Assembly: GCA_037137395.1 (NCBI GenBank)
Contig: JBAXKK010000033.1
Location: 1-24,960, forward strand
Direction of reading: 5' to 3'
Source of the DNA: Elusimicrobiota bacterium
Lineage (GTDB): Bacteria; Elusimicrobiota; Elusimicrobia; Elusimicrobiales; UBA9959
DNA: 24,960 nt
Shown: piece by piece, positions 1 to 22,527 of the stretch
How positions within the stretch are numbered: the stretch's first letter is position 1
Layout of the letters: each line of letters begins with the position of its first letter
Made by a program: the position numbers and the translations under genes
Notes under the pieces: generated by a model
Told to the model about the DNA's origin: nothing
The model's input: only the letters and a program-made list of their open reading frames with translations
Databases searched by the model: none

Positions 1-1385
1 GCGCCTGGGGATGAACTTGGCGCGCCCGGCGCGGCACTTGCGGACGCAGAGTTGGAACCGCTGTTGGCCGGGCTGCCTATGGTAGGCTGCACGGTGTTAA
101 AGCCGCAGGCGCAGCTCCTTCCGGGAGGAAGCTGTGTACTTGTGGACTTTTCGCCCTTATCCTTAAGGAAAGGGTCGCCTATCGCACCGTATGTCCTGCA
201 ATCAGCGGGATCGGTGGAGGCCAAATTATTCGCGGGGGACCAGCAGAACCTTTCCGCCGCCGGGGCGGAATTCATGCCGAAGAGGCTCTCCGTAGCGCCT
301 TTCACGGCCTCGGTAAGCACACCGTTAAAACCGGCGAGCATGGCCTCGATTATCTTCTTAGGTATCTCGTACTTCTTATAGAACTCCCACTCCTGCGCTT
401 TTAAAGCTGCGTTTTTTTCAAGCAGTTCCGCCAGAGTTTCTTTATCACTGACGCTCTTGTTGTCACGGATACTTGAGCCTGTAGCGGCGCGGTACTTTTC
501 TCCTTCCGAACCGCCGCCCGTACCCCCCATTCCCTTGCCCGGATCTACTGAATCCGCAGCAGCCTTATCCAGCGAAGTTATAGAACTCCCGCCGTTAAAG
601 TTTCCGGCTGCTTTGTCGGCCTGACCGCGCAGCTTTTCATAAGCGCCCTTACTGGCGCTGTTCAACGACGCAGCGACCCCTTTATACCCGGCTGTGGCCA
701 CAGGTCCGATCATGGAGCGCGAGGCCGCCTTGCCGGACGCGCTTCTGGCGCTGTCAAGTATCTTGCCGCCGCTTAAAGAACCGCTGGTCCTTGAACCTTC
801 TCCGCCGAAAGATCCCAGAGCTCTGAGCGAACTCTGCATCCTGGGGATGACGGTGGGCACGCCGGCCGATCTGGAGGCCTGGTTAAAAGCAGCGCGGGCT
901 GAATCTTTCATCGAATCCCTGAAATCCCCCCCCTTAGGCGGCGAACTGGTCTGAACCGCGGCGATAGGTTGTGACGAGGGCGCGCCGAGAATCAGCGAAG
1001 CGGGGTCTCTGGCGCTTAAAGGCGTGATGATCTCTCCGGAACCGTCGGGCGAACCCTGACTTAAAGCGTTAATGCCGGGCTCATAAAGCGCCCCGGTGCC
1101 GCCTTCGGAGCGATAGCCGAAGCCGGGCGCCAGCTGGTCGGCCCCTGCAGGCTTGGACATCATATACTCGGCCACGGGCGCCATAACCAGCACCCCGAGC
1201 CCCACCGTGACAAAGGCGATATCTTTTTTAGAAAGGTTTTTAAGCTTGTCCATGATGCTGCCGGCCGCCTTTGAGAAGGCGGGAGACTTGCCGAAAGAAG
1301 AAATTTTATTAAAAGAGGCCCCGGGGTTACCTACAACAGGCCTTCCTTCGTCGCGCTTTTTATCTTCATTATTCTCGTATTTCAT
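1..1385 (-). CDS. Hypothetical Gly/Ser/Ala-rich single-pass membrane protein, 3'-partial (>461 aa); absent from the supplied ORF track
   Basis: Hand translation from ATG 1385 (GGAGG 6 nt upstream): MKYENNEDKKRDEGRPVVGNPGASF...KKDIAFVTVGLGVLVMAPVAEY...SKGAYEKLRGQADKAAGNFNGG...KAQEWEFYKKYEIPKKIIEAMLAGF...RFCWSP...SCACGF...; no stop before the window edge. Confidence 0.9.
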   Translation of the reverse strand, partial: MKYENNEDKKRDEGRPVVGNPGASFNKISSFGKSPAFSKAAGSIMDKLKNLSKKDIAFVTVGLGVLVMAPVAEYMMSKPAGADQLAPGFGYRSEGGTGALYEPGINALSQGSPDGSGEIITPLSARDPASLILGAPSSQPIAAVQTSSPPKGGDFRDSMKDSARAAFNQASRSAGVPTVIPRMQSSLRALGSFGGEGSRTSGSLSGGKILDSARSASGKAASRSMIGPVATAGYKGVAASLNSASKGAYEKLRGQADKAAGNFNGGSSITSLDKAAADSVDPGKGMGGTGGGSEGEKYRAATGSSIRDNKSVSDKETLAELLEKNAALKAQEWEFYKKYEIPKKIIEAMLAGFNGVLTEAVKGATESLFGMNSAPAAERFCWSPANNLASTDPADCRTYGAIGDPFLKDKGEKSTSTQLPPGRSCACGFNTVQPTIGSPANSGSNSASASAAPGAPSSSPG

Positions 1386-1433
1386 AAACGCCTCCGCACG
1401 CTTTAGTAACTTTAAATATGTCTTATAGTTTAC

Positions 1434-1462
1434 CTAATATGCCCGTCTGTTCCAAGTGTCAA
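1434..1462 (-). promoter_or_regulatory. Possible internal sigma70 promoter for the 1385 gene, overlapping the palindrome GTCAATTGAC
   Basis: TTGACA (1462-1457), 17-nt spacer, TATTAG (1439-1434); perfect 10-bp palindrome at 1458-1467; the -10 element is imperfect. Confidence 0.35.
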
Positions 1463-1517
1463 TTGACCCATCCGCTTATAGGCCCAATGGCCCCGCGCGA
1501 ACATTCAAACCGAACCA

Positions 1518-2774
1518 TCAGCGAAAAAGCATCAACATTCTTATAATCACGTTTGGCTTATCGCATTTACTGATAATCCGGCCGCCGTTTTTATCGTTTT
1601 TAAAATAAATGCCGCAGTCCATCGGTGATGTGCTGATCTGACATGCGCGCGCTAATATGGCCTGATTATCATTAAAATCTTTGCACAACTCTCCCTGCCG
1701 CGTGACGCGCGCGTTCCATGGATCAATGTCACCATAACACATCGGCGGATCACCCGCCTGCGCCAGGCTGTCCATCTCTTTGGCGTCCGCGGATATTTTT
1801 TCGCCCTGCGCGGATCTGGCTCTCGCGCAGTCCCCGGCCAGCTGCTGCCCGGTCTGATCGTCATCCAGCGTTTTCACAAAACCTTCCGCGGGAACAGACG
1901 CAATAGCGTCAGTGCGCATACCGCCAAGTTTTACATAATTGCCGTCATAGGCAGCGCCGGTATATGATGCCTTATGCTCGTAGGCGGAATTCCAGGATCT
2001 GACGGCAACCTCGTCCGCGGAAAAAGTTTCCGCCAGCTGTGACATAGGCCTCTTGCCGCCGAAGCTATTTTCCCCTGCTGCGATTTTACGCCTGACATCC
2101 CTCCAGGAGAAACCCGACGCGCGGCCCGTCATTTTGACCGGCACTTTCTCAGCGCGGCCCGGCACCGGGATAATGCCGTCGGCCTGGTTCATCGCGTCGG
2201 CGTACATACCCGCCTTGCGGTCCCCTATGTTGGCGGGGTTAGAAATCAGACTCCTGTTAACATAAGGCCCCAAACCGGCACGCGGGTCACTGCCCGGCTC
2301 TCCTTTGAGGTCAACGGTTCCGGCACCCTCGTAGTCGGCGGCAGCTCTTTTGCCTGCCTTCCCGACTTCGCTGTTGTAAATATTGGCCGTTCCCTTTATC
2401 ATTGTCAGGGTAGAAACGTCGCTGCAACCCGACTCGCACGGAGGCGCCGGCTTTAGCGCGCCCGTCAGCTTATTCCGGTAAGAGCCCCGCGCGCTGTCCG
2501 CAGCAGCTTTGTCTATGACGCTTTTAACAAACTCCCTATAATTCCCCTCATTAGTGGCTGAAACAAAGCGCCCCAAACCAACAACCCTTAACGCGGCGGC
2601 TACCGGCGGCGTCTCAATAATCTTCCCGAAAATATCGCTTGAGAAAAGGACCGGCATTGAGGCCGCGGCCACCAACAAAAATATGGTCACATATTTGACC
2701 CGGCACCGGAAAAGAGGCGCGAGCGCGGCCAGCAGGGATTTTTTTTTGTGTTCTTTCACGAATCCTTTTCCCAT
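1518..2774 (-). CDS. Hypothetical membrane-anchored protein with Cys-rich C-terminal domain (418 aa)
   Basis: GGAG RBS before ATG 2774; basic N-terminus EHKKKSLLAALAPLFR; TM segment YVTIFLLVAAASMPVLF; six Cys in the last ~105 aa. Confidence 0.85.
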   Translation of the reverse strand: MGKGFVKEHKKKSLLAALAPLFRCRVKYVTIFLLVAAASMPVLFSSDIFGKIIETPPVAAALRVVGLGRFVSATNEGNYREFVKSVIDKAAADSARGSYRNKLTGALKPAPPCESGCSDVSTLTMIKGTANIYNSEVGKAGKRAAADYEGAGTVDLKGEPGSDPRAGLGPYVNRSLISNPANIGDRKAGMYADAMNQADGIIPVPGRAEKVPVKMTGRASGFSWRDVRRKIAAGENSFGGKRPMSQLAETFSADEVAVRSWNSAYEHKASYTGAAYDGNYVKLGGMRTDAIASVPAEGFVKTLDDDQTGQQLAGDCARARSAQGEKISADAKEMDSLAQAGDPPMCYGDIDPWNARVTRQGELCKDFNDNQAILARACQISTSPMDCGIYFKNDKNGGRIISKCDKPNVIIRMLMLFR

Positions 2775-2825
2775 ACAAACTCCCTGGAAAATCTGACCGG
2801 GGGAATCCGCGCTGACGCAGCGGCT

Positions 2826-4469
2826 TCAACTTATCATTCCCCCCTTTTGATTTTGCACAACCTGACACACCTGTGTCTGCTGCGAAGCAGGAGCCCTCGA
2901 TGTAGAGGAACTGGAGCTCCCGCCAGCCATGCCGCCCAGCAGGCCCAGGATACCGGCAATGGCAGCCATCCACATAGGCTTTACCGGACCGATGCTTATA
3001 CCCGTCATAGCCTGGATAGCCGCGGTCGAAGCGATGCCGCCGCCGATAGTGTAAATAGTGCCCAACATCTTCTGGCCGTACGTAGAGATCAGCTTGACGC
3101 CGATAGCTGTCGCCATCGCCGCGACCGCCAGAGCGATAGTGCAGATCATTATACCGATAGCATAAACAATCGCGCCTATTGCCGCGGTGTATGGGTTACC
3201 CATCAGCGCCCTGCCAAGATCTACGACCCAGGCGCCGATAATAGACAGCACTGACGAAAGCAGTATAAGCATCATCGCCCTTTCAGGCAACCCCTTCCAG
3301 GGGCTGACATCGTCCCCTGTACCGGGGGCGGACGCCGTCGTTTCATTCGCGGCCGTACCGCCGCCGGAGGTGTTATCCAGCGAGGGTGAAGTGACGATCC
3401 CGGAGCCGTCCGTGCCGCTAGTTCCCGTGCCGCCGGAGCCGCCGGAGCCGCCGGATGTAGTGCCTGCGCCTCCGGTTCCCGTAGTTACGGCGTCGGTAGT
3501 GGTGCCTTCCCACGCCTTATCCTGAGTTGAACGCTGCTGATCCGCGCTGGTGCTGCCTACGGTGGTCTGCTGCGCGGACTTTACTCCTTTGGCCTGGGCG
3601 AACGCGCCTTTGCCGACCCGGTCCATCGGTTTTCCGCCTTTGGCGTTTGAGAACACCGGCCGCGCGGAACCTTTACTGGCCAGAAGTTTTTTTCTCTGAT
3701 CGAACTTGGGGGTGGTAACGAAACCGGCGCTCAGACTGCTGAGCCCGTCGGACTGCGCTCCGACAGCGCCGGTATTGAACTTATTACTGAACCCGCCCAT
3801 ATTGCTGAATTGGCCGCCGGCGCTGCCCAGCGAAGTGGAAAGTCCGCCGGCGCTGAAACTCCCGGCAAGCTTACCCAGCATCTTCTGCTCCATGTTGCCC
3901 ATGTTGTCCTGTTCTGATGCCTGAGCGTCGGCCCCCTCACCGGCCTTATCTTCCGGAGCGGGCTTATCCTTAGACGTGTCGCCGTTCTCATCTGCGGCGC
4001 CGGCCGCGGCGTTCTCATCCATACTGAGGGCGCCGCTGTTGGTTTCCCTGAACATGTCAAGCGAGGAACCGGGGTTCTTCGTCCCGCGCAAAATCGCGGG
4101 GACATAATTTTCAGAGGTCTTGCCGGAATTGAATGAACTGGTACCTGCTTTGGGATTGGAAGGGGCCTTCATATAAAGCGTCATGCCGATAGCGCTGCCT
4201 ACAACAACCGCCGTAACGATAAGCCCGATCTTGCCGGCCAGCAGAGCGCCGATGCCGCCCAGGCCACTGAGACCGCCTCCAGCCGCGCCGGAGGCAGCGC
4301 CTAACTTCGCAGCGCCAAAGGCGCCTTGCCCAAATTTGGCGGCGCCGGGAAGAGCCTCTCCGCCCATGGCCCCCTTCCCGCCAACACCCACATGTGACCG
4401 GAGCCAGGGAATAAAGCCCTTCTTCCTATCCTTCTTCTCTTTAAAATTTATCTCAGGTAAATCGCTCAT
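2826..4469 (-). CDS. Hypothetical Gly/Ser-rich membrane protein with an N-terminal TM and ~4 C-terminal hydrophobic helices (547 aa)
   Basis: Start moved from 4508 to ATG 4469 (GGAGGTTATATG); TM IGLIVTAVVVGSAIGMTLY; low-complexity middle; DDVSPW followed by a hydrophobic Gly/Ala-rich C-terminus. Confidence 0.9.
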   Translation of the reverse strand: MSDLPEINFKEKKDRKKGFIPWLRSHVGVGGKGAMGGEALPGAAKFGQGAFGAAKLGAASGAAGGGLSGLGGIGALLAGKIGLIVTAVVVGSAIGMTLYMKAPSNPKAGTSSFNSGKTSENYVPAILRGTKNPGSSLDMFRETNSGALSMDENAAAGAADENGDTSKDKPAPEDKAGEGADAQASEQDNMGNMEQKMLGKLAGSFSAGGLSTSLGSAGGQFSNMGGFSNKFNTGAVGAQSDGLSSLSAGFVTTPKFDQRKKLLASKGSARPVFSNAKGGKPMDRVGKGAFAQAKGVKSAQQTTVGSTSADQQRSTQDKAWEGTTTDAVTTGTGGAGTTSGGSGGSGGTGTSGTDGSGIVTSPSLDNTSGGGTAANETTASAPGTGDDVSPWKGLPERAMMLILLSSVLSIIGAWVVDLGRALMGNPYTAAIGAIVYAIGIMICTIALAVAAMATAIGVKLISTYGQKMLGTIYTIGGGIASTAAIQAMTGISIGPVKPMWMAAIAGILGLLGGMAGGSSSSSTSRAPASQQTQVCQVVQNQKGGMIS

Positions 4470-4527
4470 ATAACCTCCCGATTTATACGGACCAAAAACT
4501 GTCAACATTTAGCGGACTATGCAAATG

Positions 4528-6054
4528 TTAAGGCGTTTTAGCCCCAACTGTCCCGACCCCGCCGCTGGCGCCTACGGGCGCGGTTGAGGCCCCGGTTGCG
4601 AGAGCGCCGGTCGTGGTCTCAGACACAATTTTTTGGGCATCCGCTATGCCTTCCTGCGCCCCGCTCACAGCCTCATAAGCTTTGTATATAAGCATGCCGC
4701 CCGCGGCCATGTACATGATTCCGGTCCACTTCTGTTCGTAGTCTTGCATCAACTTCAAACCGGCATATACAACAACTGCCGCAGCGGCCATAGCCGCATA
4801 AGCGGCGTATATGGCGTAATTGTACATCTGGATGGCGGCTGCAAATATCGGAGCGGCGGCGGCTGCCCCTCCGGGAACGGCAGCGGCAGCTTTAGCTTTC
4901 GCCAGCAGGGCTTTTGCCTTTTTGGCGCATGAATTGGCTATAAAGATAAACAGCGCGGACGCTATCATGCCGTAGAGCGCCAGGTCCGTGTATTTCTCCC
5001 AGGGCGACACATCCTCTGCCGCCGGCGTTGCCGCGGGAGGCGTAGAGTCGTTGCTGCTAAGGTTTGGGTCGCTGTTCTTTAGCTTGTTGCCATCGGTTAC
5101 ACCTGACCCGTTCAGTCCGGCCCCGCCGCCGGCCGTACCCACGTCGCCAGCGCCGCCGGTTTCTCCGGAAAAAGCTTCAGTAGCGCCGGTTTTGCTAGTA
5201 GCCGCGGTGGATGAACCCGCTGCCCTCACGCCCTGAGCTTTGGCGTATTTAGCCTGTCCAAAAGCGCCCCGCTTTTTAAAACTGGAAGCGCGCTTGGACG
5301 CGCTCTTTATCGGGGAAGCCTTGGCGCTTTTTATACCTGAACTGTTGCCCTGCCCCGCCGGAGCCTTATAGATAGGAGCAAACTTACTGTTTACTCCGCC
5401 GAACATCCCGCTGCCGCCCGCCAGTGTTGAACCTCCGCCCTTAGAACTGCCGAAGCCCTGGACAGTCTGAAGCTTGGGGCCGCCTCCAGTCGGAATGTTT
5501 GCCGATGAATCGGCCGAAGCTCCTTCGATAGCCGCCTTATCTTCGGCAGCCGCGTCCTCGGCGGAAGCGTCCTTCTTTTCAGCGTTCTCCCCGTCTTCGC
5601 CGAGACCAAGTCCGTCTTTTTTGGCCTGATCGCGAAACATGTCAAAACCGGAAGCCGAGGCGTCCGCCAGTTGTTTGGCGCGTTCCCGGGCAGCGTTCTG
5701 GGCCTGCTCGTCGTAGTAAGTATCCTGGAACATGTTTGGCGTGTAAACGGATTTGGAGGACGGGCCCAGGAAATTATAGAGCACGCCTATCCCGGCCGCT
5801 ATCGTGGCTACGCTCAAGATTATCCCCATTATGCCGGCCTTGGTGGAGAAAAGCCCGGCAAGTCCGGAGGTAGAACCAAACAGGGACGCGAACCAGGAGC
5901 CGAACCCTGAACCGGATGAGCCTAAGCGCGCGCCGGCTGAGCCGAAGCCCGCGGCACCGCCCGCGCCGGACGACCCGCCCCTGAAAAGGCTTGAAAGGTA
6001 CGCCCAGAAACCGATTTTCTTTTCTTTCTTTTTAGATTCATTAGATTCGTTCAT
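4528..6054 (-). CDS. Hypothetical Gly/Ala-rich membrane protein, paralog of 2826-4469 (508 aa)
   Basis: Start moved to ATG 6054 (GGAGGCTATATG); shares KKK..GF..L, DMFR, GAF.QAK and DVSPW motifs with the neighbouring gene; ~3 C-terminal hydrophobic helices. Confidence 0.9.
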   Translation of the reverse strand: MNESNESKKKEKKIGFWAYLSSLFRGGSSGAGGAAGFGSAGARLGSSGSGFGSWFASLFGSTSGLAGLFSTKAGIMGIILSVATIAAGIGVLYNFLGPSSKSVYTPNMFQDTYYDEQAQNAARERAKQLADASASGFDMFRDQAKKDGLGLGEDGENAEKKDASAEDAAAEDKAAIEGASADSSANIPTGGGPKLQTVQGFGSSKGGGSTLAGGSGMFGGVNSKFAPIYKAPAGQGNSSGIKSAKASPIKSASKRASSFKKRGAFGQAKYAKAQGVRAAGSSTAATSKTGATEAFSGETGGAGDVGTAGGGAGLNGSGVTDGNKLKNSDPNLSSNDSTPPAATPAAEDVSPWEKYTDLALYGMIASALFIFIANSCAKKAKALLAKAKAAAAVPGGAAAAAPIFAAAIQMYNYAIYAAYAAMAAAAVVVYAGLKLMQDYEQKWTGIMYMAAGGMLIYKAYEAVSGAQEGIADAQKIVSETTTGALATGASTAPVGASGGVGTVGAKTP

Positions 6055-6068
6055 ATAGCCTCCGGGTA

Positions 6069-7055
6069 TCATTGAGCCATAGTAGATGTCGTTCCTGTCG
6101 CTCCGGTCGCCCCCATCTCTCCCGCCCCTGCAGAGAACATGCTGCTGAACATCGGGCCAAGCAAGCTGCTTATTATCATTTGTATCAGCATCTTTTTTAT
6201 CTCTTCGTCGGCTGAATCGTCCTTCACGGCCTTAGGCACCGGCAGCGTTACTTTTTTCTTGCTGAGCTGGGGGTCGTTGGTTTTAAGATCCTGCGCAGCC
6301 GCGCCCAAAGCAAGTCCGGATTCGGCCGCGTCCTGTTCCAGATCCGTGTTGAGGTCGGCATTATCGACGTTAGCGGTTTTCCCGAAAGCGGAAGTCGCGC
6401 CGCTGGCAGCCGCGCCCGGATTAGCGGACTTGGCCGCCTGCGCGCTTTTCGCCTCGGTTTTCGTCAGCATGGCCACCAGCGAGTTGCGCTTGTCGGACGC
6501 TGTCATATTTTTTAAATTCTGGTCGGAAGCGGGCGCTAACTCAGACTTGCCGGCCCCGCTGCCGAAGAATTTATTATACGCGCCGCCCGCTGTCATGGAA
6601 TTGGAATTGCCGGACGTTATAGACGGCATGTAGTTCAGTTTGCCTTTGGAGCCTGAGGCCGACGATCCCGCTGCTCCGCCGGAAGCCGGCGCGCCAGGAA
6701 GAGGAACCGAAGCCTTGCCGGAATCTGACGCGGAGGCCGTCCCTTCAGCCGCCTCGTCCGAGGGGCCTGACTGGAAAAGAGAGGACGCGATATTTTCTCC
6801 GGAAGTGGCGGGATTATTCAACATCTCTCCGCTGAGAGCGTAGCCGGGCGCTCCGCCCTCCTGGGGAATATCATTGCCTAGCGAACTGACGTCAGCTGTC
6901 CTTGTTTTGAAAAAATTTCCGGTGGCCACGGAGGCGTCCATAGAGGAGCCCTGCATAAAGGGACCCGAAATCCAGGCGCAGATTATTATCAGGGCGACTA
7001 TCCCGCCTATAATATATTGCTTGGCCTTAGATTTTTCACCCGTTACTTTCAGCAT
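6069..7055 (-). CDS. Hypothetical Ser/Ala/Gly-rich membrane-anchored protein (about 328 aa)
   Basis: Likely start ATG 7055 (MLKVTGEK; the track start is GTG 7103); TM YIIGGIVALIIICAWISGPF; C-terminal hydrophobic/amphipathic helix KKMLIQMIISSLLGPMFSSMF. Confidence 0.85.
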   Translation of the reverse strand: MLKVTGEKSKAKQYIIGGIVALIIICAWISGPFMQGSSMDASVATGNFFKTRTADVSSLGNDIPQEGGAPGYALSGEMLNNPATSGENIASSLFQSGPSDEAAEGTASASDSGKASVPLPGAPASGGAAGSSASGSKGKLNYMPSITSGNSNSMTAGGAYNKFFGSGAGKSELAPASDQNLKNMTASDKRNSLVAMLTKTEAKSAQAAKSANPGAAASGATSAFGKTANVDNADLNTDLEQDAAESGLALGAAAQDLKTNDPQLSKKKVTLPVPKAVKDDSADEEIKKMLIQMIISSLLGPMFSSMFSAGAGEMGATGATGTTSTMAQ

Positions 7056-7146
7056 AGCCGTTCCGCCTTTGGCTGCAAATAAACTTAAGACCTCCCCTGA
7101 CACGATCTTGCAAAAAGTTCAGGGCAAAGCCAACATCTACATTGAT

Positions 7147-7175
7147 GTTATAGCAGGAAATATTTGACTTGTCAA
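7147..7175 (-). promoter_or_regulatory. Near-consensus sigma70 promoter for the five-gene membrane-protein cluster
   Basis: TTGACA (7175-7170), 17-nt spacer, TATAAC (7152-7147), with an extended -10 (TGcTATAAC). Confidence 0.65.
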
Positions 7176-7189
7176 GGGGCTCAAAGGGC

Positions 7190-7218
7190 TTGCGCGGACA
7201 CCGTGCCAGTAGTATAAT
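7190..7218 (+). promoter_or_regulatory. Sigma70 promoter for the divergent radical SAM gene
   Basis: TTGCGC (7190-7195), 17-nt spacer, TATAAT (7213-7218), 22 nt before ATG 7241. Confidence 0.55.
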
Positions 7219-7240
7219 TCCCGAAGCGCCACCTGACCTT

Positions 7241-8617
7241 ATGGCTGAAGAACAAACACCGGACCTGTTACTAATAGACGACGAGGACGACCCCTTCCGC
7301 GGGAAAGGCGCCGCAGACACAGCCGCGCCAGAAGATGCAGGCCGCATTATCAATATGGGTTTCCGCGCCGCGCGCTGGGCTTTTGAGCCGCCGAAGCTGG
7401 CCGTACCGCTGCTTTCCGCCCAAGCGAAGGCCGCCGGGCACATGGTAGCATCCATATGCCGGCCCCTTCTTCCCTGGAAAAGAAAAGCATTCCGCCGGCT
7501 GCTGGAGAACCATCCGCTCGCCGCCGGCATTACCACCGTGGCCATGTTTGAGACCGGCCTCATATCGCGCATCATTGCTGAAATACGCGAAATCAGCCCC
7601 CACACAGTTATCATACTTGGCGGACACGGAGCGGAGAATTCGCGGGAGATACGCGCGCTGGGAGATCTCACCATAACCCGGCACGGCGAAGGCATCCTGG
7701 CAGAAGTTATCACGGCGCTTAAAAACGGAACCCCGCCGGACCGGATGCCGGGGGTTGCAGCCGACGCGGACGGCTCGCTTTCCATACAGGGCAGCCTGCG
7801 CTACGAAGGCATTCAGCATGTACTGCGCCCGGACTGGAGCGCCGCCAGTTCCGCCTGCCGGCGCTACCCCATAGAAGCCTCACGGGGCTGCACCTTCAAC
7901 TGCTCTTACTGCGGCTTTCCCGGCAAGGCGGGGCAGGTGTTCCGGCCGGCAGCCGAAGTTGTCGATGAGATGCTTTATGCGCGCGAGATGCATGGAATAA
8001 GGTGTTTTGACTTTGTTGATTCATCCCTGACATCAGACCCCGAGTTTATGCTTGAACTCTGCTCTTCCCTGCGCAAGTCCGGCCTGCGGGCTGACTGGAG
8101 ATGCTTTGCCAGACCCGACGCTTTTGATCGCGCCCCCGAACTGGCGGCAGAGATGGTCGCGGCCGGTTGCAGCAGGATTTTTATGGGGATTGAATCAATA
8201 CACGACCATATACTTTCCGGCATGCGGCGCGGCATGAATCGCGCGACTATAGAACGCGGCCTCGAAAAGGTTTTCAAGTCAGGGATAAAAATACACGGGA
8301 ACTTTATAATAGGCTTCCCGGGCGAAACGGAAATGACCGTAAAAGAAACAGCGGAATTCATAAGCCGAAGACCTTTTTCCACGGTGTATCTCTGCACCTT
8401 CGGCATGTCCCCGGAGATGTTAGAACTGGCTGCCAAGGAACCGGCGCGCTACGCCCACCTTTCAGGCAAGCCGGCAAAGGGCTGGCGTCACGACGGCATG
8501 GACTACCTTGCCGCCTATAATCTGACGCTCTGGGCCGCGAGAAAGATAAATCTATCGAAGCTGTGGCCTACAGCCTTCTCCCCCGGCAGCAATAATCCAA
8601 ACCATCCGCCTTACTAG
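7241..8617 (+). CDS. B12-binding domain radical SAM protein (class B methyltransferase-like, about 458 aa)
   Basis: EASRGCTFNCSYC (CxxxCxxC), VIILGGHG, HGEG, FVDS, FMGIES and FIIGFPGET motifs; start placed at ATG 7241 downstream of the promoter (the track start is TTG 7169). Confidence 0.88.
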   Translation: MAEEQTPDLLLIDDEDDPFRGKGAADTAAPEDAGRIINMGFRAARWAFEPPKLAVPLLSAQAKAAGHMVASICRPLLPWKRKAFRRLLENHPLAAGITTVAMFETGLISRIIAEIREISPHTVIILGGHGAENSREIRALGDLTITRHGEGILAEVITALKNGTPPDRMPGVAADADGSLSIQGSLRYEGIQHVLRPDWSAASSACRRYPIEASRGCTFNCSYCGFPGKAGQVFRPAAEVVDEMLYAREMHGIRCFDFVDSSLTSDPEFMLELCSSLRKSGLRADWRCFARPDAFDRAPELAAEMVAAGCSRIFMGIESIHDHILSGMRRGMNRATIERGLEKVFKSGIKIHGNFIIGFPGETEMTVKETAEFISRRPFSTVYLCTFGMSPEMLELAAKEPARYAHLSGKPAKGWRHDGMDYLAAYNLTLWAARKINLSKLWPTAFSPGSNNPNHPPY

Positions 8618-8645
8618 AATATGCACCGGGTCCGCCCGCATGGCG

Positions 8646-8664
8646 GCCGTGAAAGCGGCGTTTT
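8646..8664 (+). terminator. Possible intrinsic terminator between convergent radical SAM genes
   Basis: GCCGT-GAAA-GCGGC stem with a GNRA loop, followed by GTTTT; the stem is short. Confidence 0.4.
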
Positions 8665-9623
8665 CAACGCCAGCTTATAGGGGTTTTCACGCACACATCG
8701 CATATGGAGGAATTTATACCGGGGATTTCCCTTATCGCATGATCAAAAAATGAGCCCATAAGGTTCTTCTCTTCATACACGCCGCAACACCTGTACAAAC
8801 ACCCGTCAAAATCTATTGTCACCAGGTAACGCTTGAGCATGCAGTCCGCCGGCGTTTTAAGCGTGCGTGCGATTTTCTCTTCCTTTTTCAGGTCTATGAA
8901 CCGGCGGTAAAATTCCGAGAAACGCTCTTTTTCCTTCTGAAAAGCGGCGTTCCCCTCAACGCAGGAGACGGAGCAGCGGGCAAGCTTAAACTTAACGCCG
9001 TTCTTACGGCAGAAATCTTTCGCGAGGACGGCTTCCGCCTTGTTATACACGTAATCATGAAATTTGACAACTATCTCCATTGCGCCGCGCAACCGCTTTT
9101 TGGCAGAAACAAGATCGCTAATGTTTTCCAACACCATCTTTATGTCGCCGCCTACATGGTTCTTTGAGTATACTTCCTGTGACATGCCTGACAGAGATAC
9201 CTCCAGCCGATCCAACCCGGAACTCACAACCGCGTAAGGGTCCGTCAGGCAGTTCAAATTAGTGAAGGCGATGATCTTTGCGCCGGAAAGCCGGGATTTG
9301 GCGTATCTCGCCATTTCAGGGAACAAGGGATTAAGAAGGGGCTCGCCCCAGTTAGCCAACCATAATTCGCGCACCCTTACATTTTCGTCCCGGAACTTTT
9401 CGATTATTTTTTTAAAAAGTTCCATATCCATCGCGCCCCGTCTTCCGTTAACGAGGCCGTGGACACCTCCTCTCGGGCACATGACGCATTTAAGGTTGCA
9501 GTCCGCGGATATTTCCACGCAGACGGTGGCTCCTGCCGGAAAAAAACAGTCGAAATAATAGCTCATCGCCCGGCTCAGCCCGCTCCCGGCAAACCGGCGC
9601 TGGAAAAATCTTCGTATATTCAT
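8664..9623 (-). CDS. Radical SAM protein with C-terminal SPASM/twitch-like Cys motif (319 aa)
   Basis: EISADCNLKCVMCP; WGEPLLNP; C-terminal C...IDFDGCLYRCC...MGS...CDVC. Confidence 0.88.
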   Translation of the reverse strand: MNIRRFFQRRFAGSGLSRAMSYYFDCFFPAGATVCVEISADCNLKCVMCPRGGVHGLVNGRRGAMDMELFKKIIEKFRDENVRVRELWLANWGEPLLNPLFPEMARYAKSRLSGAKIIAFTNLNCLTDPYAVVSSGLDRLEVSLSGMSQEVYSKNHVGGDIKMVLENISDLVSAKKRLRGAMEIVVKFHDYVYNKAEAVLAKDFCRKNGVKFKLARCSVSCVEGNAAFQKEKERFSEFYRRFIDLKKEEKIARTLKTPADCMLKRYLVTIDFDGCLYRCCGVYEEKNLMGSFFDHAIREIPGINSSICDVCVKTPISWR

Positions 9624-9662
9624 ATCGGTGCAATTTTCTTAGCAACAGTTTCACGGTTGCCG

Positions 9663-10493
9663 TTACCGCGCTTTCTGCCAATAGACGCCCACCCAGTCAA
9701 TCGGAATTATTTCCTCCCGGATCGAGCGCTCTTTTCTGAAATCATGAACAGCCGCTTTACAGGATTCAACAGCCCCATAGTCGTCAACGATCAAAAAACC
9801 TCCTGCCGAAAGCTTGTGATATAAACTTTTCAGGGCGTCCATCGTCGACTCATACAAGTCGCCATCAAGACGCAGCACGGCAAGTTTTTCTATCGGCGCG
9901 TCCGGCAGGGTCTCTTTAAACCAACCCTTTAAAAAACAAACCTGCTCGTCTAAAAGCCCGTATCTTTCAAAGTTTTGTTTTACCCGCTCCAGAGAAACCG
10001 CCAAATCTTTATACTTATAGAGATTGACCCCTTTATCCTTGGGGTATCTGACTTCATCCGGCCTGGGCAAACCCGCGAACGAGTCGGCGACAAAAACTTT
10101 CCTGTCGGTGACGGCATAAGCTTTTAAAATGGCGCGCATAAAAATCGTCGCCCCGCCGCGCCAGACTCCGGTTTCTATCAAATCACCAGGCACATTATTT
10201 TTGATGATCTGCTCGACGCAATACTGAATATTATCCAGCCGCTTAAGCCCTATCATGGTATGCGCTACCGGCGGCCAATCTTTCCCCGACACCCGCCTGT
10301 CTTCGCCCTGGTCGCGGAGATTTATAATTTCAGGATTATTTTTACGAAGCAGCAGTTGAACAAAGAATCTTTGTATTTTTTTATTCCAGGGCGTAAAATT
10401 CCGGCATTCATGCTCGTAATAAATCGTATTGGTAAGGCAGCGCTTCATCAGATCCAGGTACAGCCCGCTGCAATTTTCATTATTTACCGGCAT
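9663..10493 (-). CDS. TylF/MycF/NovP-family (macrocin-type) O-methyltransferase
   Basis: TMIGLKRLDN, GDLIETGVWRGG, DSFAGLP, GWFKETLP, LRLDGDLYEST and IVDDYG signature motifs. Confidence 0.93.
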   Translation of the reverse strand: MPVNNENCSGLYLDLMKRCLTNTIYYEHECRNFTPWNKKIQRFFVQLLLRKNNPEIINLRDQGEDRRVSGKDWPPVAHTMIGLKRLDNIQYCVEQIIKNNVPGDLIETGVWRGGATIFMRAILKAYAVTDRKVFVADSFAGLPRPDEVRYPKDKGVNLYKYKDLAVSLERVKQNFERYGLLDEQVCFLKGWFKETLPDAPIEKLAVLRLDGDLYESTMDALKSLYHKLSAGGFLIVDDYGAVESCKAAVHDFRKERSIREEIIPIDWVGVYWQKAR

Positions 10494-10513
10494 CTAAATC
10501 TCCCGTAGTTTTA

Positions 10514-11425
10514 TTAAAATCCGCGAGCTGCGGCGCCGGCGGTGTCCTGTGGTATGCCCACGGCGCTCCAGCCGTATTTTCGCACCAGGCGGCACAACCC
10601 CCTGAGTATGCGAAAGAAAGTGCGAACCGGCATCGCGCGCCCGGTCTGCGAGCCGGAGTTGGGCCCCGCCGGCTGCATGCTTTTGCTCAGCCCGCCGTGA
10701 AAAACAAAAGCGTCTGGCACGGTCGCCAGCTTCCACCCGGCTTTTCTCGCTCTTATAGCGTAATCCACTTCTTCCATATAGCCAAAGCCGAACCCCTCGT
10801 CAAACGGGCCCAGCTCCTTATAAACTTCGCGCTTAAATAACATGCAGAAACCCAAAAGCCAGCCTGCCTCAACAGCGGGACTTCTTCGGCCGGACAGGGC
10901 CAGACCGAAAGCGTCAAAACGGCGCAGCTCTCCGTCCTCAAAAGATTCAAGCGGAGCAGGCAGCTTGGCAGCCTGCTGCAGCGCGGCATTGAAACCACCG
11001 TTACTCACCGGACCGGCCAGCCCCAGCCTGGGGTCCGAGTCCAGCGCGGCCTCAAGCCTGGCCAGGGCTCCGGGCGCCAATCTGGTGTCGCTGTTACATA
11101 ACAGTAGACGGGAGCCGGTTGCCAGCGAAAGTCCTTTATTAGCCGAGCGCAGATAGCCGAGATTTTTTATATTCCGGTGGTAAATGACGTCGGCCCAACT
11201 CCCGGCTTCCCTGGCGGAAGCGGCCGTCTCGGCCTCCAGCGGGGAAGCGTCGTCAACGATCACCAGCTCCACCCTCCGCCCGGCGTTCAGCCGCAGGCCG
11301 GAAAGGAAAAGCCGGTCCAGCATTTCAGCAAGATAGCGGTTCCGGCTGTAGACCGGAACTATAACGCTCAGCGTACCCCGGTCGCGCGCATGATTTAAAC
11401 CAGTTTTACGATTCATAAAAATCAT
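10514..11425 (-). CDS. Glycosyltransferase family 2 protein
   Basis: LSVIVPVY, IVDDAS, NLGY..SANKG, LLCNSD, GPFDEGF..GYMEEVDY..RA..AGW, FVFH; start could be 11416. Confidence 0.9.
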   Translation of the reverse strand: MIFMNRKTGLNHARDRGTLSVIVPVYSRNRYLAEMLDRLFLSGLRLNAGRRVELVIVDDASPLEAETAASAREAGSWADVIYHRNIKNLGYLRSANKGLSLATGSRLLLCNSDTRLAPGALARLEAALDSDPRLGLAGPVSNGGFNAALQQAAKLPAPLESFEDGELRRFDAFGLALSGRRSPAVEAGWLLGFCMLFKREVYKELGPFDEGFGFGYMEEVDYAIRARKAGWKLATVPDAFVFHGGLSKSMQPAGPNSGSQTGRAMPVRTFFRILRGLCRLVRKYGWSAVGIPQDTAGAAARGF

Positions 11426-11457
11426 CAGAGCCTATGCCTATAAACAAGGTCTCCGCG

Positions 11458-12267
11458 TCAGACGGGCAGGCGCAGGACGCCGATACCATAGCTTACCTGC
11501 GAGGTGTCCTCTATATATTCCGTCCTGACCCCGGGCAGCGCGGTCTCCCTCCAGAAACGGCTTACGGCTACGCCGAACTCCTCCAGACCCGGTTGTATGT
11601 CGTGAAAGGCTATCACCCCTCCGGGTTTTACAAAGCGGGAATACATTTCAAAATCTGATTTCACTCCCGCAAAGGTGTGGTCGCCGTCTATAAAAAGCAG
11701 ATCAAGTTTACGCCCGCCCAAAGCCTTTTCGAACAGCGCCGCGCTGAAGGGTGATTTTGAATCTCCGTCTATGAGCCGCAGGTCCTGTCCCGGACCCGCC
11801 ATAGCCTTGAGCAGCGGCAGTCGCCAGGATCCTTTATTTATAAACGGCAAAGGTCCGCTATGTATCGCTCCCGGAAGATCAAGGCTTATTATAAGGGCGT
11901 CCGGGGCCGCGGCGCGGCATAGCAGCATCAGCGTCCCCCCTTTTGCGCGTCCTATTTCCGCCACGACTGAAGGCGGGGCGGGGAAGGTTTCTCTCAAAAA
12001 AGAAAGTATCTCCGCACGACGCTGCAGCATCCCCGTAAAAAATGAACCTGAGCCCAGGATAAACTCGGCGGATTCCTCCAGGCCTGAGGAGGAGAGTTCT
12101 CTCAGCCTGAAAAGACAATAAAAATATTTGGCCGGGAGCATTAGCAACAGAGGGATTATGGCCGCGAGGCGCATCAAGCCGGGCGCTAGCGCCGCCATAA
12201 GCGCGGCGCAACCAAGCAGCAGAAACCGGAAAACCAGAAAAAGAAAGGAAAGTTTAAAAGGCTTCAT
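11458..12267 (-). CDS. Class I SAM-dependent methyltransferase (Methyltransf_24-like) with N-terminal TM hairpin
   Basis: EIGRAKGGT, DLLFIDGDHT..GVKSDF and GGVIAFHD motifs; two hydrophobic N-terminal segments. Confidence 0.85.
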   Translation of the reverse strand: MKPFKLSFLFLVFRFLLLGCAALMAALAPGLMRLAAIIPLLLMLPAKYFYCLFRLRELSSSGLEESAEFILGSGSFFTGMLQRRAEILSFLRETFPAPPSVVAEIGRAKGGTLMLLCRAAAPDALIISLDLPGAIHSGPLPFINKGSWRLPLLKAMAGPGQDLRLIDGDSKSPFSAALFEKALGGRKLDLLFIDGDHTFAGVKSDFEMYSRFVKPGGVIAFHDIQPGLEEFGVAVSRFWRETALPGVRTEYIEDTSQVSYGIGVLRLPV

Positions 12268-16878: not shown

Positions 16879-18438
16879 ATGCATCACCTGCTTGAAAAAA
16901 AACATACGGGACTTCTCCTTCCGCTTTTCTCCATGCGCTCAAAAAAAGACTGGGGGATAGGCGATATCTCCGGCATGGCGAAATGGATAGACGCCGCGGC
17001 CGCGCTGAACCTGGACCTTATACAACTCCTGCCGGTTAATGAAATGCCGCCCGGAGCGGAATGCCCCTACACCGCCCTCAGCGCTTTCGCCATAGACCCC
17101 ATTTTCATCGCCATAGACGATATCCCGGAACTCTCCGAATGCCCCGAATTAAAAAAAGAGCTGGCCGCGAAAAGGTTTCAGACGGTGCTGCGCCATCTAC
17201 GCCGCTCCACCATCGTGCATTATAACGATATTAAAGGGCTGAAATTTAAAATTCTCTGGAAGATATATTGCGCCTTCCATGAGAACCATATCCTTAAAGA
17301 CACTGCCGCCGCGAAAGATTTTTTTGCTTTCACCGGGAAGAACGCTTTCTGGCTGAACGACTACGCGCTTTTTCGCAGACTTAAAGACACTCACACCTGG
17401 ACATCGTGGACTCACTGGGAGGAATCTCTCAGGCGCCATGACAGCGCGGCTTTAAAAGAGTTTGAGGCCGCCAACGAAAACCAGGTGATGTTCTTCAGAT
17501 ACCTGCAGTGGGTGATAGACCGCCAGTGGCGCGCGGCCCGAGAGCATGCCGCGGCCAAGGGCATTCTTCTGATAGGCGATCTGCCGTTCATGGTTAACCA
17601 GGAAAGCGCTGATGTATGGGCGCGCCAGAACGAATTTGACATCCAAAAGGAGGTCGGAGCCCCGCCCGACGCCTTCAGCGAAACTGGCCAGAAATGGGGC
17701 CTGCCCGCCTACCGCTGGGACGAGGTAGAAAAAAATAATTTTGAATGGTGGCGCTTGAAAGTCAAAAAATCGGCCGATTTCTACGACCTCTTCCGGATAG
17801 ATCATATGGTGGGATTTTTTCGCACCTGGATCATCCCGCACGACGTGAATCTAAAATCGCATTTTGACATAACGGACCCGGCCGCCCAGCGCGCGCGTGG
17901 AGCACGTTTTCTTCAGGCCGTTCTCGGGGCCAGCCGGATGCTGCCCGTGGCTGAAGACCTTGGCCTTATCCCCCCTTTCGTATATGAAGTCCTGGCTGAA
18001 ATGGAGATTCCAGGTTACAAGGTAATGCGCTGGGAAAAAGATAAGGCCGGCCAATATGCGGAGCCAGAGAACTACCCGCGCGTCGGTTTCGCAACCTCCT
18101 CCACCCACGATAATGAACCCGTAGCCGACTGGTGGGACACAGTGGACCTGGTAGAGAAAAAACTTTTCTGGGCGATGGTTTCCGGCAGGAATGAAAAACC
18201 GCCACTCTTCTCTAAGGCCAGGGAAGCGGTTATCAGGAAACTGCTTAAGGCGGCCTCAAGCCTGCTTATCCTGCCCATACAGGACATCTTCGGCTCAAAG
18301 GACCGCATCAACACGCCCAACACCATGGGCGTGCATAACTGGACCTACAAATTCCCCACACCGGTAGAGTACCTCTTCAAAAAACACAAAGTGCTCCTTG
18401 ACAACTTCGCCGCAATGGTTAAAGAGGAAAGATTATGA
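16879..18438 (+). CDS. malQ: 4-alpha-glucanotransferase (amylomaltase, GH77)
   Basis: GIGD, QLLP, PY..LS.FA, GDLPF, GAPPDAFSETGQKWGLP.Y, RIDH..GF, AEDLG, STHD and RINTP motifs. Confidence 0.95.
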   Translation: MHHLLEKKHTGLLLPLFSMRSKKDWGIGDISGMAKWIDAAAALNLDLIQLLPVNEMPPGAECPYTALSAFAIDPIFIAIDDIPELSECPELKKELAAKRFQTVLRHLRRSTIVHYNDIKGLKFKILWKIYCAFHENHILKDTAAAKDFFAFTGKNAFWLNDYALFRRLKDTHTWTSWTHWEESLRRHDSAALKEFEAANENQVMFFRYLQWVIDRQWRAAREHAAAKGILLIGDLPFMVNQESADVWARQNEFDIQKEVGAPPDAFSETGQKWGLPAYRWDEVEKNNFEWWRLKVKKSADFYDLFRIDHMVGFFRTWIIPHDVNLKSHFDITDPAAQRARGARFLQAVLGASRMLPVAEDLGLIPPFVYEVLAEMEIPGYKVMRWEKDKAGQYAEPENYPRVGFATSSTHDNEPVADWWDTVDLVEKKLFWAMVSGRNEKPPLFSKAREAVIRKLLKAASSLLILPIQDIFGSKDRINTPNTMGVHNWTYKFPTPVEYLFKKHKVLLDNFAAMVKEERL

Positions 18439-19379
18439 ACCAGGTTACAGGTCACAGGTCACAGGTCACAGGTCACGAACCGCCAGCCATAAATTGCAGG
18501 GGGCCCATAACCGGAATTCCGGAGCTATTCGCTATTCGCTTTTCACTGTTTCGCTGCTTCGCCATTTCGCTGTTCGCTATTTCACTGTCCTCCTGCTCCC
18601 TCAACCGGCTTGCGGTAAAGTCGACCGCCTCGGTCATTGATAAGGGCTTGCCGGCCATCTACAGAGAAAAAGACCCTCAATTCGCCAGAGAAGCCCTGCC
18701 TGCCAACCTAAAATTGATGGAAGTGCTTCTGGAAAGCGACCCTGGTAATCAGGCCCTACTGCTGGACGCGGCAATGGGGTTCTGCGGCTACAGCTTTATG
18801 TTTATAGAGGACGAGAACGAGGCGCGGGCATCCGGCCTTTACCAGAAAGGCGGCGGCTACGCCCTGCGGGCGCTGGCGCTTAAAGGCGCCGTCAAAGACG
18901 GCTCAGCGGACCCGCGCGCGCTGGACAAAAACACGGCGGCGGCCGCCTTCTGGCACACTTTCTGCCGCGCCGCGTATGTGAACCTCAACCGCGACGACCC
19001 GGACGCCGTAGCCGAGCTCCCAAAGATAATGCCGGTGGCCGAAAGAGTGGCCGAACTTACCCCGGCCTACTACTACAACGGCTCTTACGCCATGCTCGGA
19101 ACATATTACGCTCTGAGACCTAAGATATTGGGAGGCGATCCGGAGAAAGCCAAACTAAATTTTGATAAGGCGATGCAGGGCGGCGGTGCCGGTTTTTTGC
19201 TGAACGGCTACATGGCCGCCAGGATGTACGCCGTGGCCGCGCAGGATGAGGATTATTTTGTGAAGGTTCTGAACGCTATTCTCTCCGCCGAACTCAAAGA
19301 CGACGAAGCGCGGCTCCCTAACGAAGTGGCGAAGATCAAAGCAAAAAAACTTCTGGAGAAAAAAAATGAGCTCTTTTAA
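18435..19379 (+). CDS. tatT: TRAP transporter TatT component family lipoprotein
   Basis: LSSC lipobox; DP.FA..ALP..LK..E.LL, Y...F and LGGDPEKAK..F..A motifs; immediately upstream of dctP; ATGA overlap with malQ. Confidence 0.82.
   Translation: MNQVTGHRSQVTGHEPPAINCRGPITGIPELFAIRFSLFRCFAISLFAISLSSCSLNRLAVKSTASVIDKGLPAIYREKDPQFAREALPANLKLMEVLLESDPGNQALLLDAAMGFCGYSFMFIEDENEARASGLYQKGGGYALRALALKGAVKDGSADPRALDKNTAAAAFWHTFCRAAYVNLNRDDPDAVAELPKIMPVAERVAELTPAYYYNGSYAMLGTYYALRPKILGGDPEKAKLNFDKAMQGGGAGFLLNGYMAARMYAVAAQDEDYFVKVLNAILSAELKDDEARLPNEVAKIKAKKLLEKKNELF
18441..18475 (+). repeat. Heptamer array (CAGGTCA)x5 inside the tatT 5' end
   Basis: caggtta caggtca caggtca caggtca caggtca. Confidence 0.92.
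18524..18590 (+). repeat. Mixed 7/8-mer array (GCTATTC-like)x9 encoding the TatT signal-peptide hydrophobic region
   Basis: gctattc gctattc gcttttc actgtttc gctgcttc gccatttc gctgttc gctatttc actgtcc. Confidence 0.8.
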
Positions 19380-20394
19380 CCGCCGGTGGCTATCAAAAAC
19401 TTCGACAATACTGATTGCCGGTTACTGGTTGCTGTTTACTATCCAGCCGCTTCAGGCTCAGACTGTGGTAAAGTTCGCCACGCTGGCGCCGGAAGGCACC
19501 GCCTGGATGAAAACGATGCGTCAGTTCAGCGACGAGGTCTCCGTTAAGACCGATGGCCGCGTAAAGTTCAAAATCTACGCCGGCGGAGTTTCCGGCGACG
19601 AGAAAGATGTTGCCAGGAAGATCCGTCTGGGCCAACTGCAGGCGGCTGGCTTCACAGGTGTGGGCCTGGGCGAAATAGCCCCGGAAACCCGCGTTCTCGA
19701 TACGCCGTTCCTTTTCAAAAACACGGCTGAGCTCGACAACATCTATAAAATGATGGACGCGGACTTCCGCAAGATATTTGAGTCAAAGGGCTACATACTG
19801 CTCGGCTGGACCGAGGTCGGCAATGTCTACATCTTCTCCAACACCCCGGTAACGAATCCGGCGGATCTGCAGAAAGTAAAAATGTGGATCTGGGAAGGCG
19901 ACCCCATAGCCGAAGCCACTTTCTCCGCCATGAAGATAAAACCCATTCCACTCTCCATTACGGATGTTATGACTTCGCTTCAGACCGGAATGATAAACGC
20001 CGTCTACTGCGCGCCGGCGACCGTTATACCGCTGCAGTGGTACACAAAGATGAAGTACGCCATGTCCACTCCCATCGCCACCGCTTCGGGCGCCGTGGTA
20101 ATCTCCAGAAAAGTATTTGAGCTGCTCTCCAAAAACGATCAGAAAAACATGCTTGAAGCGGGCGCCAGACATTTCAAGGCCCTGACTTCGACCAGCCGCA
20201 GGGACAACGAGAAGTCGATAGCCACCCTTAAAAAGGAAAATGTTATTTTCAGCGAGCCCGCCGGCCCGGAAACGCTGGCCATCTTTGAAAAGATGGGAGA
20301 AGAAGCCCGGAGATCCCTGGTGGGTAAACTTTATTCCAGCCAGCTCCTGGAAAAGATAGCGGGCGCTCTAAAGCAGTTCCGGATGAAAAAATAA
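19366..20394 (+). CDS. dctP: TRAP transporter substrate-binding protein DctP (TatP type)
   Basis: Signal peptide; KFATLAPEGTAW, TDGRVKFKIYAGGVSGDE, GQL, PFLF and SLQTGMI motifs. Confidence 0.92.
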   Translation: MSSFNRRWLSKTSTILIAGYWLLFTIQPLQAQTVVKFATLAPEGTAWMKTMRQFSDEVSVKTDGRVKFKIYAGGVSGDEKDVARKIRLGQLQAAGFTGVGLGEIAPETRVLDTPFLFKNTAELDNIYKMMDADFRKIFESKGYILLGWTEVGNVYIFSNTPVTNPADLQKVKMWIWEGDPIAEATFSAMKIKPIPLSITDVMTSLQTGMINAVYCAPATVIPLQWYTKMKYAMSTPIATASGAVVISRKVFELLSKNDQKNMLEAGARHFKALTSTSRRDNEKSIATLKKENVIFSEPAGPETLAIFEKMGEEARRSLVGKLYSSQLLEKIAGALKQFRMKK

Positions 20395-20416
20395 AGATTT
20401 GTTTGCAATTAAATCT

Positions 20417-20451
20417 GCCTATGGCATACGGCCTATGGCTTCTGGCAAGCA
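20417..20451. repeat. Heptamer array (GCCTATG-like)x5 between dctP and dctQ
   Basis: gcctatg gcatacg gcctatg gcttctg gcaagca. Confidence 0.75.
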
Positions 20452-20470
20452 GACAGTTTCACAATAAACC

Positions 20471-20977
20471 ATGAAATATTTTTTTAAAATTGAAGATTAT
20501 CTCGTCAGGGGCGAAAAGGCGCTGGTAGTCTCTTTTATCGGCCTGATGATTATATTTTCCTTCCTGCAACTGACGCTTCGCCTCGTATTCCATTCCGGCA
20601 TAGTCTGGCTGGACCCCGCGCTCAGGCACATGGTGCTCTGGACCGGGCTGACAGGCGCGGTCCTGGCCGCGCGATACGCCAGACATTTCGCCATGGACGC
20701 GCTGGTGAAATTCCTTCCGGAGCGTCTCCACCGACCGCTTAAAATTTTTACGGATGTCTTCACTATCGTAGTAGCCTGCGCGCTTTTTGGCGCGGCCCGG
20801 AAATTCATCCGCGACGAATTCGAGTCCGGCTCGGTGGCTTTTTACATAGGGAATATGGGAGTGCAGGGCGGCTGGGCCGGCATGATACTCCCGGCCGTCT
20901 TTCTGCTGATAGCCTTTCACACATTCATCAATATGTTCAGGCAGGAGAAAACAGACGCCATAAGCTCTCAGCCGTAA
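20471..20977 (+). CDS. dctQ: TRAP transporter small permease DctQ
   Basis: 168 aa with four hydrophobic segments; Q..LR, W.D...R..VLW....GA.LA....RHF.MD; located between dctP and dctM. Confidence 0.9.
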   Translation: MKYFFKIEDYLVRGEKALVVSFIGLMIIFSFLQLTLRLVFHSGIVWLDPALRHMVLWTGLTGAVLAARYARHFAMDALVKFLPERLHRPLKIFTDVFTIVVACALFGAARKFIRDEFESGSVAFYIGNMGVQGGWAGMILPAVFLLIAFHTFINMFRQEKTDAISSQP

Positions 20978-21204
20978 GCATAATAACAGTTGCCGTAAGA
21001 ATGATAACGGTTGCCGTATGCCATAGGCCATTAGCCATACGCAGAAAAAGACTGCCGTTTGCTATTAGCCGTACGCTATATGCTTTAAAGGAGTTCCCTG
21101 ATTTTTCCGCGAATGGCCAATGGCGGATAGCAAATGGCATTTCACTCTGCGTATGGCCTAAAGCTTACGGCCTGTGGCTTGCGACCTGTGGCTGATAGCA
21201 ATAG
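20957..21204. repeat. Composite heptamer arrays forming a long imperfect inverted repeat between dctQ and dctM
   Basis: Left arm has GCCATAN/GCYRTNN units and right arm has GCNWATG units; GCCATACGCAGA (21034-21045) is the exact reverse complement of 21146-21157; a near-duplicated 21-mer lies at 20971/20992. Confidence 0.85.
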
Positions 21205-21219
21205 TTGTATCTGACAATT

Positions 21220-22476: not shown

Positions 22477-22480
22477 CAGG

Positions 22481-22511
22481 TGCCAGGCTGCTTTTTAAAA
22501 GTAGCCCGGCA
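22481..22511. terminator. Stem-loop between convergent dctM and ppk1 (possible terminator)
   Basis: TGCCAGGCTGCTTT-tta-AAAGTAGCCCGGCA imperfect 14-bp stem; no strong U-tract. Confidence 0.5.
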
Positions 22512-22527
22512 TTATAAACTGCGATTT

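Follow-up and report, generated by a model that had tools for sequence, protein, structure and literature searches.

What do five neighbouring genes do when their products are membrane proteins of no named family, and what company do they keep in related genomes? This question is raised by the left end of contig JBAXKK010000033.1 of an Elusimicrobiota bacterium (assembly GCA_037137395.1, positions 1 to 24,960), a complete contig (C33 in our numbering) of the 2.7 Mb source genome, which we refer to at its full length of 24,960 nucleotides (nt) as the window. Here five co-oriented minus-strand genes, termed A to E, lie downstream of a strong promoter (Table 1). Our analysis establishes A–E as a real, conserved and previously undescribed module of paralogues and adds a new element, its Tad genomic context: the genes are likely a relocated part of a gene set that stands directly behind the tad operon in most relatives in which both could be placed. 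We give about even odds (roughly 0.5) that their products form an inner-membrane accessory module of the Tad pilus.

An earlier note on this DNA, made from the letters alone, had described five co-oriented genes behind a near-consensus promoter, four of them with GGAG(G) ribosome sites, and had recognized no named domain; all of this was borne out. The coordinates and the promoter are as described (Table 1), GGAG(G) lies upstream of B, C, D and E and is missing before A, and the intergenic gaps A–B, B–C, C–D and D–E measure 14, 58, 51 and 132 nt. Searches with A–E yielded nothing significant, the best matches having E values of only 0.037 in Pfam and 0.049 in NCBIfam, with zero matches at an E value of 0.01 in PHROGs. 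A literature search, which covered the Elusimicrobia genome papers only in part, found no publication describing the cluster. Each protein has one N-proximal hydrophobic segment, with additional C-terminal ones in B and C, and a combined Gly, Ser and Ala content of between 30% (D) and 45% (B). The single N-proximal segment had been anticipated, but behind N-termini described as short and Lys-rich, and those of B, C and E extend over 50–75 amino acids (aa). Distinct C-terminal modules had likewise been proposed, but the window encodes only the front half of E, and the module at the true C-terminus of this protein is predicted to be a long bundle of helices. Full-length E comprises 800–1400 aa in relatives and 838 aa in the nearest one.

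To assess common descent, we used profile comparisons with shuffled controls (controls ≤1.3%). A, B, C and D were linked at 88–99.9%, and E joined this set only at 80%, so that an old paralogue expansion is supported for A–D; as judged from these profiles, shared ancestry is strong for A, B and C, moderate for D and weak for E. Two further genes found in relatives or elsewhere in the source genome, Y and Z, also appear as paralogues (Z–Y 98%, A–Y 89%). The short motifs that had been read as recurring across the five proteins fared unevenly. B and C align over GAF.QAK and DVSPW, A and B over SAFG/EAFSG and LK..DP.L, and the core around AAYDG of D aligns to B/C in deeper profiles (87.7%), but the GNFNG and KKIIEAM matches of E and the KKK..L.A.L..LFR match between D and B have no significant alignment behind them. 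The D protein of the window lacks the hydrophobic tail carried by most family orthologues, and in one genome (L027:18227-19837, G016) D carries a C-type hydrophobic tail in place of the Cys-rich domain, a sign of module exchange between paralogues.

The module is conserved within certain lineages. The order A–B–C–D–E is kept at all 13 close-relative loci as far as the contigs reach. Downstream of E, the nearest relative has a gene for deoxyhypusine synthase, then an unannotated signal-peptide gene and dnaX; the same trio begins at the end of contig C48 of the source genome, which makes E the most likely last gene of the cluster. We surveyed 301 Elusimicrobiota genomes with an E profile, which matched 55 genomes in its narrow and 138 in its widened version, and with a TadG-like profile, which matched 145. 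By family (f numbers are our labels), E was present in 20 of 22 genomes of f1 as well as in the source genome, and in f2 (86/88), f6 (4/4), f7 (1/1), f8 (25/26) and f12 (1/1); the other families of the set gave no match (for example, f15, 0/89). This distribution, together with the 13 close-relative loci, supports the lineage-restricted cluster that had been postulated. These are related genomes, with a single genus supplying 62 of the 88 from f2, so the counts stand for few independent lineages. Across 1.84 billion cluster representatives the E profile matched 465. The module occurs in genomes of 1.2 to 4.6 Mb; E is almost always single-copy, and distant loci hold two to five B/C-type genes each, some with foreign genes inserted. 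In one genome, G096, the TadG-like profile and the B profile each match five times, and one of the B-like genes adjoins a 2477-aa open reading frame (ORF); the system appears to be expanded there.

The link to the Tad pilus comes from gene order and co-occurrence. Contig C3 of the source genome carries a full tad operon, comprising Flp-type pilins, TadE, RcpC/CpaB, a secretin, a TadZ–TadA fusion, TadB and TadC, together with a TPR gene, two-component genes, a TadG-like gene and a second TadE; pilin, TadE/G, RcpC/CpaB, secretin, TadA, TadB and TadC, by which a Tad locus is recognized, are all found in this one locus. The TadG label reflects position and leader, the TadG-like protein being a lineage-specific pseudopilin with no Pfam match. 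The secretin of this operon is 240 aa long and almost devoid of N-terminal domains, and C3:33015-34622 and 34653-36869 encode TadB with an N-terminal extension of about 250 aa and TadZ fused to TadA. Among the 301 genomes, 137 contain both E and tadG, one only E, eight only tadG and 155 neither. Where both lie on one contig (76 genomes), E is found 5.6–24.5 kb downstream on the same strand in 72 (f2 59/63, f6 2/2, f8 11/11). The order tadG, tadE, an optional FtsH-like gene and then the cluster was read in 5 of 10 f2 loci, in G131 and G259, and in f8 and f6; at distant loci the cluster is immediately preceded by TadE-like, TadC and two-component genes, and in f9 Gly-rich transmembrane (TM) genes stand behind tadG in 3 of 3 loci read. 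The FtsH-like AAA+M41 gene lies between the pseudopilins and the cluster in f1, f6, f8 and f9; in this paralogue (L044:7704-9359 and its orthologues) the HEAGH motif is intact and the N-terminal membrane part very short, and no FtsH paralogue of this type was found in the source genome. In the window's own family the place behind tadE, or behind tadE and ftsH, is taken by paralogue Y in 6 of 8 loci read; in the source genome Y (C3:17673-18983) directly follows tadE and precedes a gene for an S41 peptidase with a PDZ domain. The simplest history, drawn from this distribution rather than from a rooted tree, is one ancestral operon from which Z–A–B–C–D–E moved away in the window's family. Pilus, secretin or ATPase genes, which had been considered beyond the left edge, are absent at this locus but present at the ancestral one, where the Tad operon is complete and has the TadG-like and TadE pseudopilins as its last members. 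A–E themselves are not pilins and match no Tad component.

A shared promoter element ties the window to other sites of the source genome. The palindrome TTGAC-AA-GTCAA before gene A is kept in 9 of 12 relatives and also precedes D in three distant genomes (G115, G295 and G102). The exact 12-mer occurs six times in the source genome, and in five copies it overlaps a -35 box with a properly spaced -10 box; it stands before A–E, a TPR gene, a clostripain-family peptidase gene, a formiminotransferase-like gene and a contig end. The TPR gene is the orthologue, on contig C41 (32–39% identity, E value ≤1e-71), of the gene downstream of E in f2, and it has the same palindrome-plus-promoter as gene A, so that one element is common to two fragments displaced from the old operon. 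The six sites may form a small regulon under a putative regulator.

Several observations weigh against a function in the pilus. Gene order from one ancestor could give linkage without physical contact, and no known Tad accessory protein resembling A–E was found. E and tadG share a contig in none of 21 genomes of the window's own family. The palindrome was not found at the tad operon of the source genome, and it also precedes unrelated genes, namely those of the peptidase and the formiminotransferase-like metabolic protein. G013 and G014 (89% and 96% complete) have tadG and no E match; such Tad systems without the cluster indicate that the module is dispensable for some of them. In the closed genomes G090 and G279, E (L102:12294-16352 and L103:4708-8877) lies far from tadG with no A–D beside it, so E can stand alone; B/C were not found in these two by a search that had no positive control. 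The E gene of G090 adjoins a preceding type IVa pilus gene cluster.

Part of this pattern would suit an independent envelope scaffold, in which A–E build a periplasmic structure of their own, for cell shape, membrane tethering or division, and share only an ancestral neighbourhood or a regulator with tad. The cluster left the tad locus in a whole family with its order kept, its promoter element was not found at the tad operon of the source genome, and the nearly constant single copy of E is housekeeping-like. We nevertheless consider a scaffold unlikely, though worth keeping in view, given that E occurs without tadG in only 1 of 138 genomes and that the linkage holds in three families by count and in a fourth by inspection; two to five B/C paralogues per locus, with foreign insertions, would also be unusual for a fixed housekeeping structure.

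The proteins are predicted to be anchored in the inner membrane. Motif tests around the first TM helix covered 296 alignment rows, with overlap between the sets. Positive charge is greater on its N-side in all rows of A (26/26), D (25/25), E (110/110) and Z (9/9), and in only 50 of 85 B/C rows; a positive N-side predicts a cytoplasmic N-terminus and a periplasmic body, which the median of eight Cys residues in D and in E fits. AlphaFold modelling of C (64-row alignment) returned a C-terminal domain of four hydrophobic helices, with a predicted local distance difference test (pLDDT) score of about 90 over the first three, preceded by a disordered linker and two short core helices. In the model of E (110 rows), the front half is disordered apart from short helices and leads into a helical bundle of about 350 residues, mostly above pLDDT 90. 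The N-in anchors and long, largely disordered linkers proposed in the earlier note are thus supported as predictions by charge bias and models. A structure search with the C and E models gave no specific structural match, and a profile search of the PDB gave nothing below an E value of 0.1.

The same rows bear on two further explanations. A–E might be tip subunits, cut by prepilin peptidase and built into the pilus tip with TadG and TadE; their genes sit behind pseudopilin genes, and Tad tips are made of variable sets of minor pilins according to PMC12075869. The class III leader signature G-x4-E (Gly at -1, Glu at +5) occurs in 0 of 296 rows, however, and the window proteins have no pilin match in Pfam. 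K/R-x-G ahead of the hydrophobic helix, which B orthologues keep as K-A-G, is found in 42 of 85 B/C rows, a B-centred subset; the counts at this site are 0/26 for A, 1/25 for D, 0/9 for Z and 0/13 for f2 rows. We regard tip subunits as very improbable. Force transducers of the TolA/TonB kind, driven by a proton motor, would have the same coarse layout of N-terminal TM helix, long linker and C-terminal module. They are marked by an SHLS motif in the TM helix, as stated in PMC12204202, but its S-x3-H core is seen near the first TM helix in 0 of 296 rows; neither ExbB/TolQ nor ExbD/TolR was matched among 52 and 22 neighbouring proteins scanned, there is no TonB_C or TolA_C match, and the modelled C-terminal domains are all-helical. 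Also unlike TolA/TonB, the module comprises five to seven paralogues in one operon. This explanation is largely refuted and scarcely credible.

What follows E in other families raises the matter of cargo. In f6, f7 and f8, E is followed by a protein of about 1000 aa and then by another large protein related to it, which carries a signal peptide, is 2400–3100 aa long where complete and bears superfamily-2 ATPase motifs that we take to resemble those of SecA. Its Pfam matches are only weak ones to ResIII/DEAD, and a PDB search gave nothing below an E value of 0.05. The giant proteins at L045, L065, L067, L071, L072 and L076 measure 2413–3114 aa, each with a signal peptide and split ATPase motifs, and most of their genes are the second behind E. 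One of the six (in G303) ends in a CdiA_C domain (E value 5.6e-15), and a 138-aa ORF without a Pfam match lies directly behind its gene. Neither large gene was found in the source genome, and in the f2 loci read the gene after E is a TPR gene or another one. Giant genes in Omnitrophota encode a divergent SecA-DEAD-like domain and come after a secretion locus with rcpC, secretin and pilin-like genes, as described in passages of 10.1101/2023.11.21.568195. The order of tad, A–E and large secreted ATPase-motif proteins in f6, f7 and f8 is similar and ties Elusimicrobia to the Tad-plus-giant-protein pattern of predatory Omnitrophota; the proteins here differ in their size, signal peptide and few TM helices, and those passages mention no paralogous membrane set.

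The giant proteins would give a role to a pilus-coupled translocon, in which the B/C hairpins leave the inner membrane, insert into a target membrane and, with the E rod, form a conduit for them. The B/C C-terminal domain is indeed a Gly/Ala-rich hydrophobic bundle on a long tether, expanded and variable, and the adjacent paralogous genes of type III secretion system (T3SS) translocators (SctE/SctB) and pore-former heads also encode Gly/Ala-rich hydrophobic hairpins. Unlike A–E, T3SS translocators and these pore-formers are secreted and have no N-terminal anchor, and strongly hydrophobic helices behind a signal anchor would by default stop in the inner membrane. Among the top 25 of 33 families from a Pfam scan of 64 members there was no T3SS translocator or pore-former family. 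The ATP/ADP translocase family gave only a marginal fragment (E value 4.9e-4) in the source genome. That the giant genes were not found in the source genome, and that other genes follow E in the f2 loci read, counts against the idea as well. Contact killing by Tad pili is on record for Myxococcus, whose Kil system has minor-pilin tips and a needleless T3SS partner (PMC12075869); A–E are not minor pilins of that kind. Taken together, we find a translocon improbable. A broader proposal, a Tad pilus turned contact-dependent delivery machine, with five to seven tethered, FtsH-remodelled paralogues as the conduit for giant self-powered ATPase proteins, some of them toxin-tipped, is speculative and a little less improbable; if true, much of the clade, gut lineages included, would be contact-dependent predators or competitors.

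For the accessory module that we favour, each subunit would be held by one helix anchor, N-in, with a Gly/Ser-rich tether reaching into the periplasm. Subunits might assemble at the pilus base through their anchors and the common two-helix core, while the C-terminal modules (the B/C hydrophobic bundles, the Cys-rich domain of D and the long helical rod of E) would build or brace a contact site, where the retracting pilus may bring the cell against another cell or a surface. In several families an FtsH-like protease gene lies between tadE and the cluster, and its product could remove or remodel the membrane subunits. A role in cell-to-cell contact is possible; physical contact with the pilus is inferred, as any delivery function would be. 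Adhesion, DNA uptake and the killing of prey are all tasks of Tad pili, and it is their accessory parts that decide among these; a module of five to seven genes behind tad across several families, with products of no known family, is a candidate new accessory. Tad systems in Elusimicrobia are on record, and the relevant passages of PMC6668835 name no other family as systematically associated with such systems. The link to tad turns an orphan cluster into a testable question of binding to the pilus base and of pilus function without the module.

Table 1. Features of the A–E cluster in the window, and further copies of its palindrome in the source genome
Feature	Position	Strand	Description
Gene A	6069..7055	minus	328 aa; N-terminal TM helix, Gly/Ser-rich linker, shared two-helix core, LK..DP motif, C-terminal amphipathic helix
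Gene B	4528..6054	minus	508 aa; basic/amphipathic N-terminus, Gly-rich TM helix, linker, shared core, C-terminal hydrophobic helical domain
Gene C	2826..4469	minus	547 aa; full-length paralogue of B; C-terminal domain a predicted bundle of four hydrophobic helices
Gene D	1518..2774	minus	418 aa; TM helix, linker, shared core, Cys-rich domain
Gene E	3..1385	minus	first 461 aa, no stop (contig end); most conserved member
Promoter of A	7147..7175	minus	TTGACA (7175-7170), 17 nt, extended -10 TATAAC (7152-7147) with TG
Palindrome TTGAC-AA-GTCAA	7164..7175	minus	spans the -35 box of the A promoter; likely operator
Possible internal promoter for E	1434..1462	minus	TTGACA, 17 nt, TATTAG in the D–E gap; putative, read from the letters
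Other palindrome copies	C2:106523, C8:248, C12:17353, C41:5856, C80:8373		exact match

The promoter scan did not list the promoter of A because it demands T at the last -10 position. Beyond it, two radical-SAM genes and three others (7169-12267), which we take to encode a TylF-like methyltransferase, a glycosyltransferase and a second methyltransferase, occupy the site where most relatives have gene Z. Two small contigs of the source genome, C143 (2.8 kb) and C155 (2.1 kb), hold a second, diverged A–B–C fragment, with 48–70% protein identity to the window genes and a stop inside C, and a Z gene; they are likely contamination, which is reported at 7.7% for this genome, a second copy being the alternative. 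Farther along the window (16879-24603) lie ordinary genes, presumably for a 4-alpha-glucanotransferase, a TRAP transporter with a TatT-like lipoprotein, and polyphosphate kinase.

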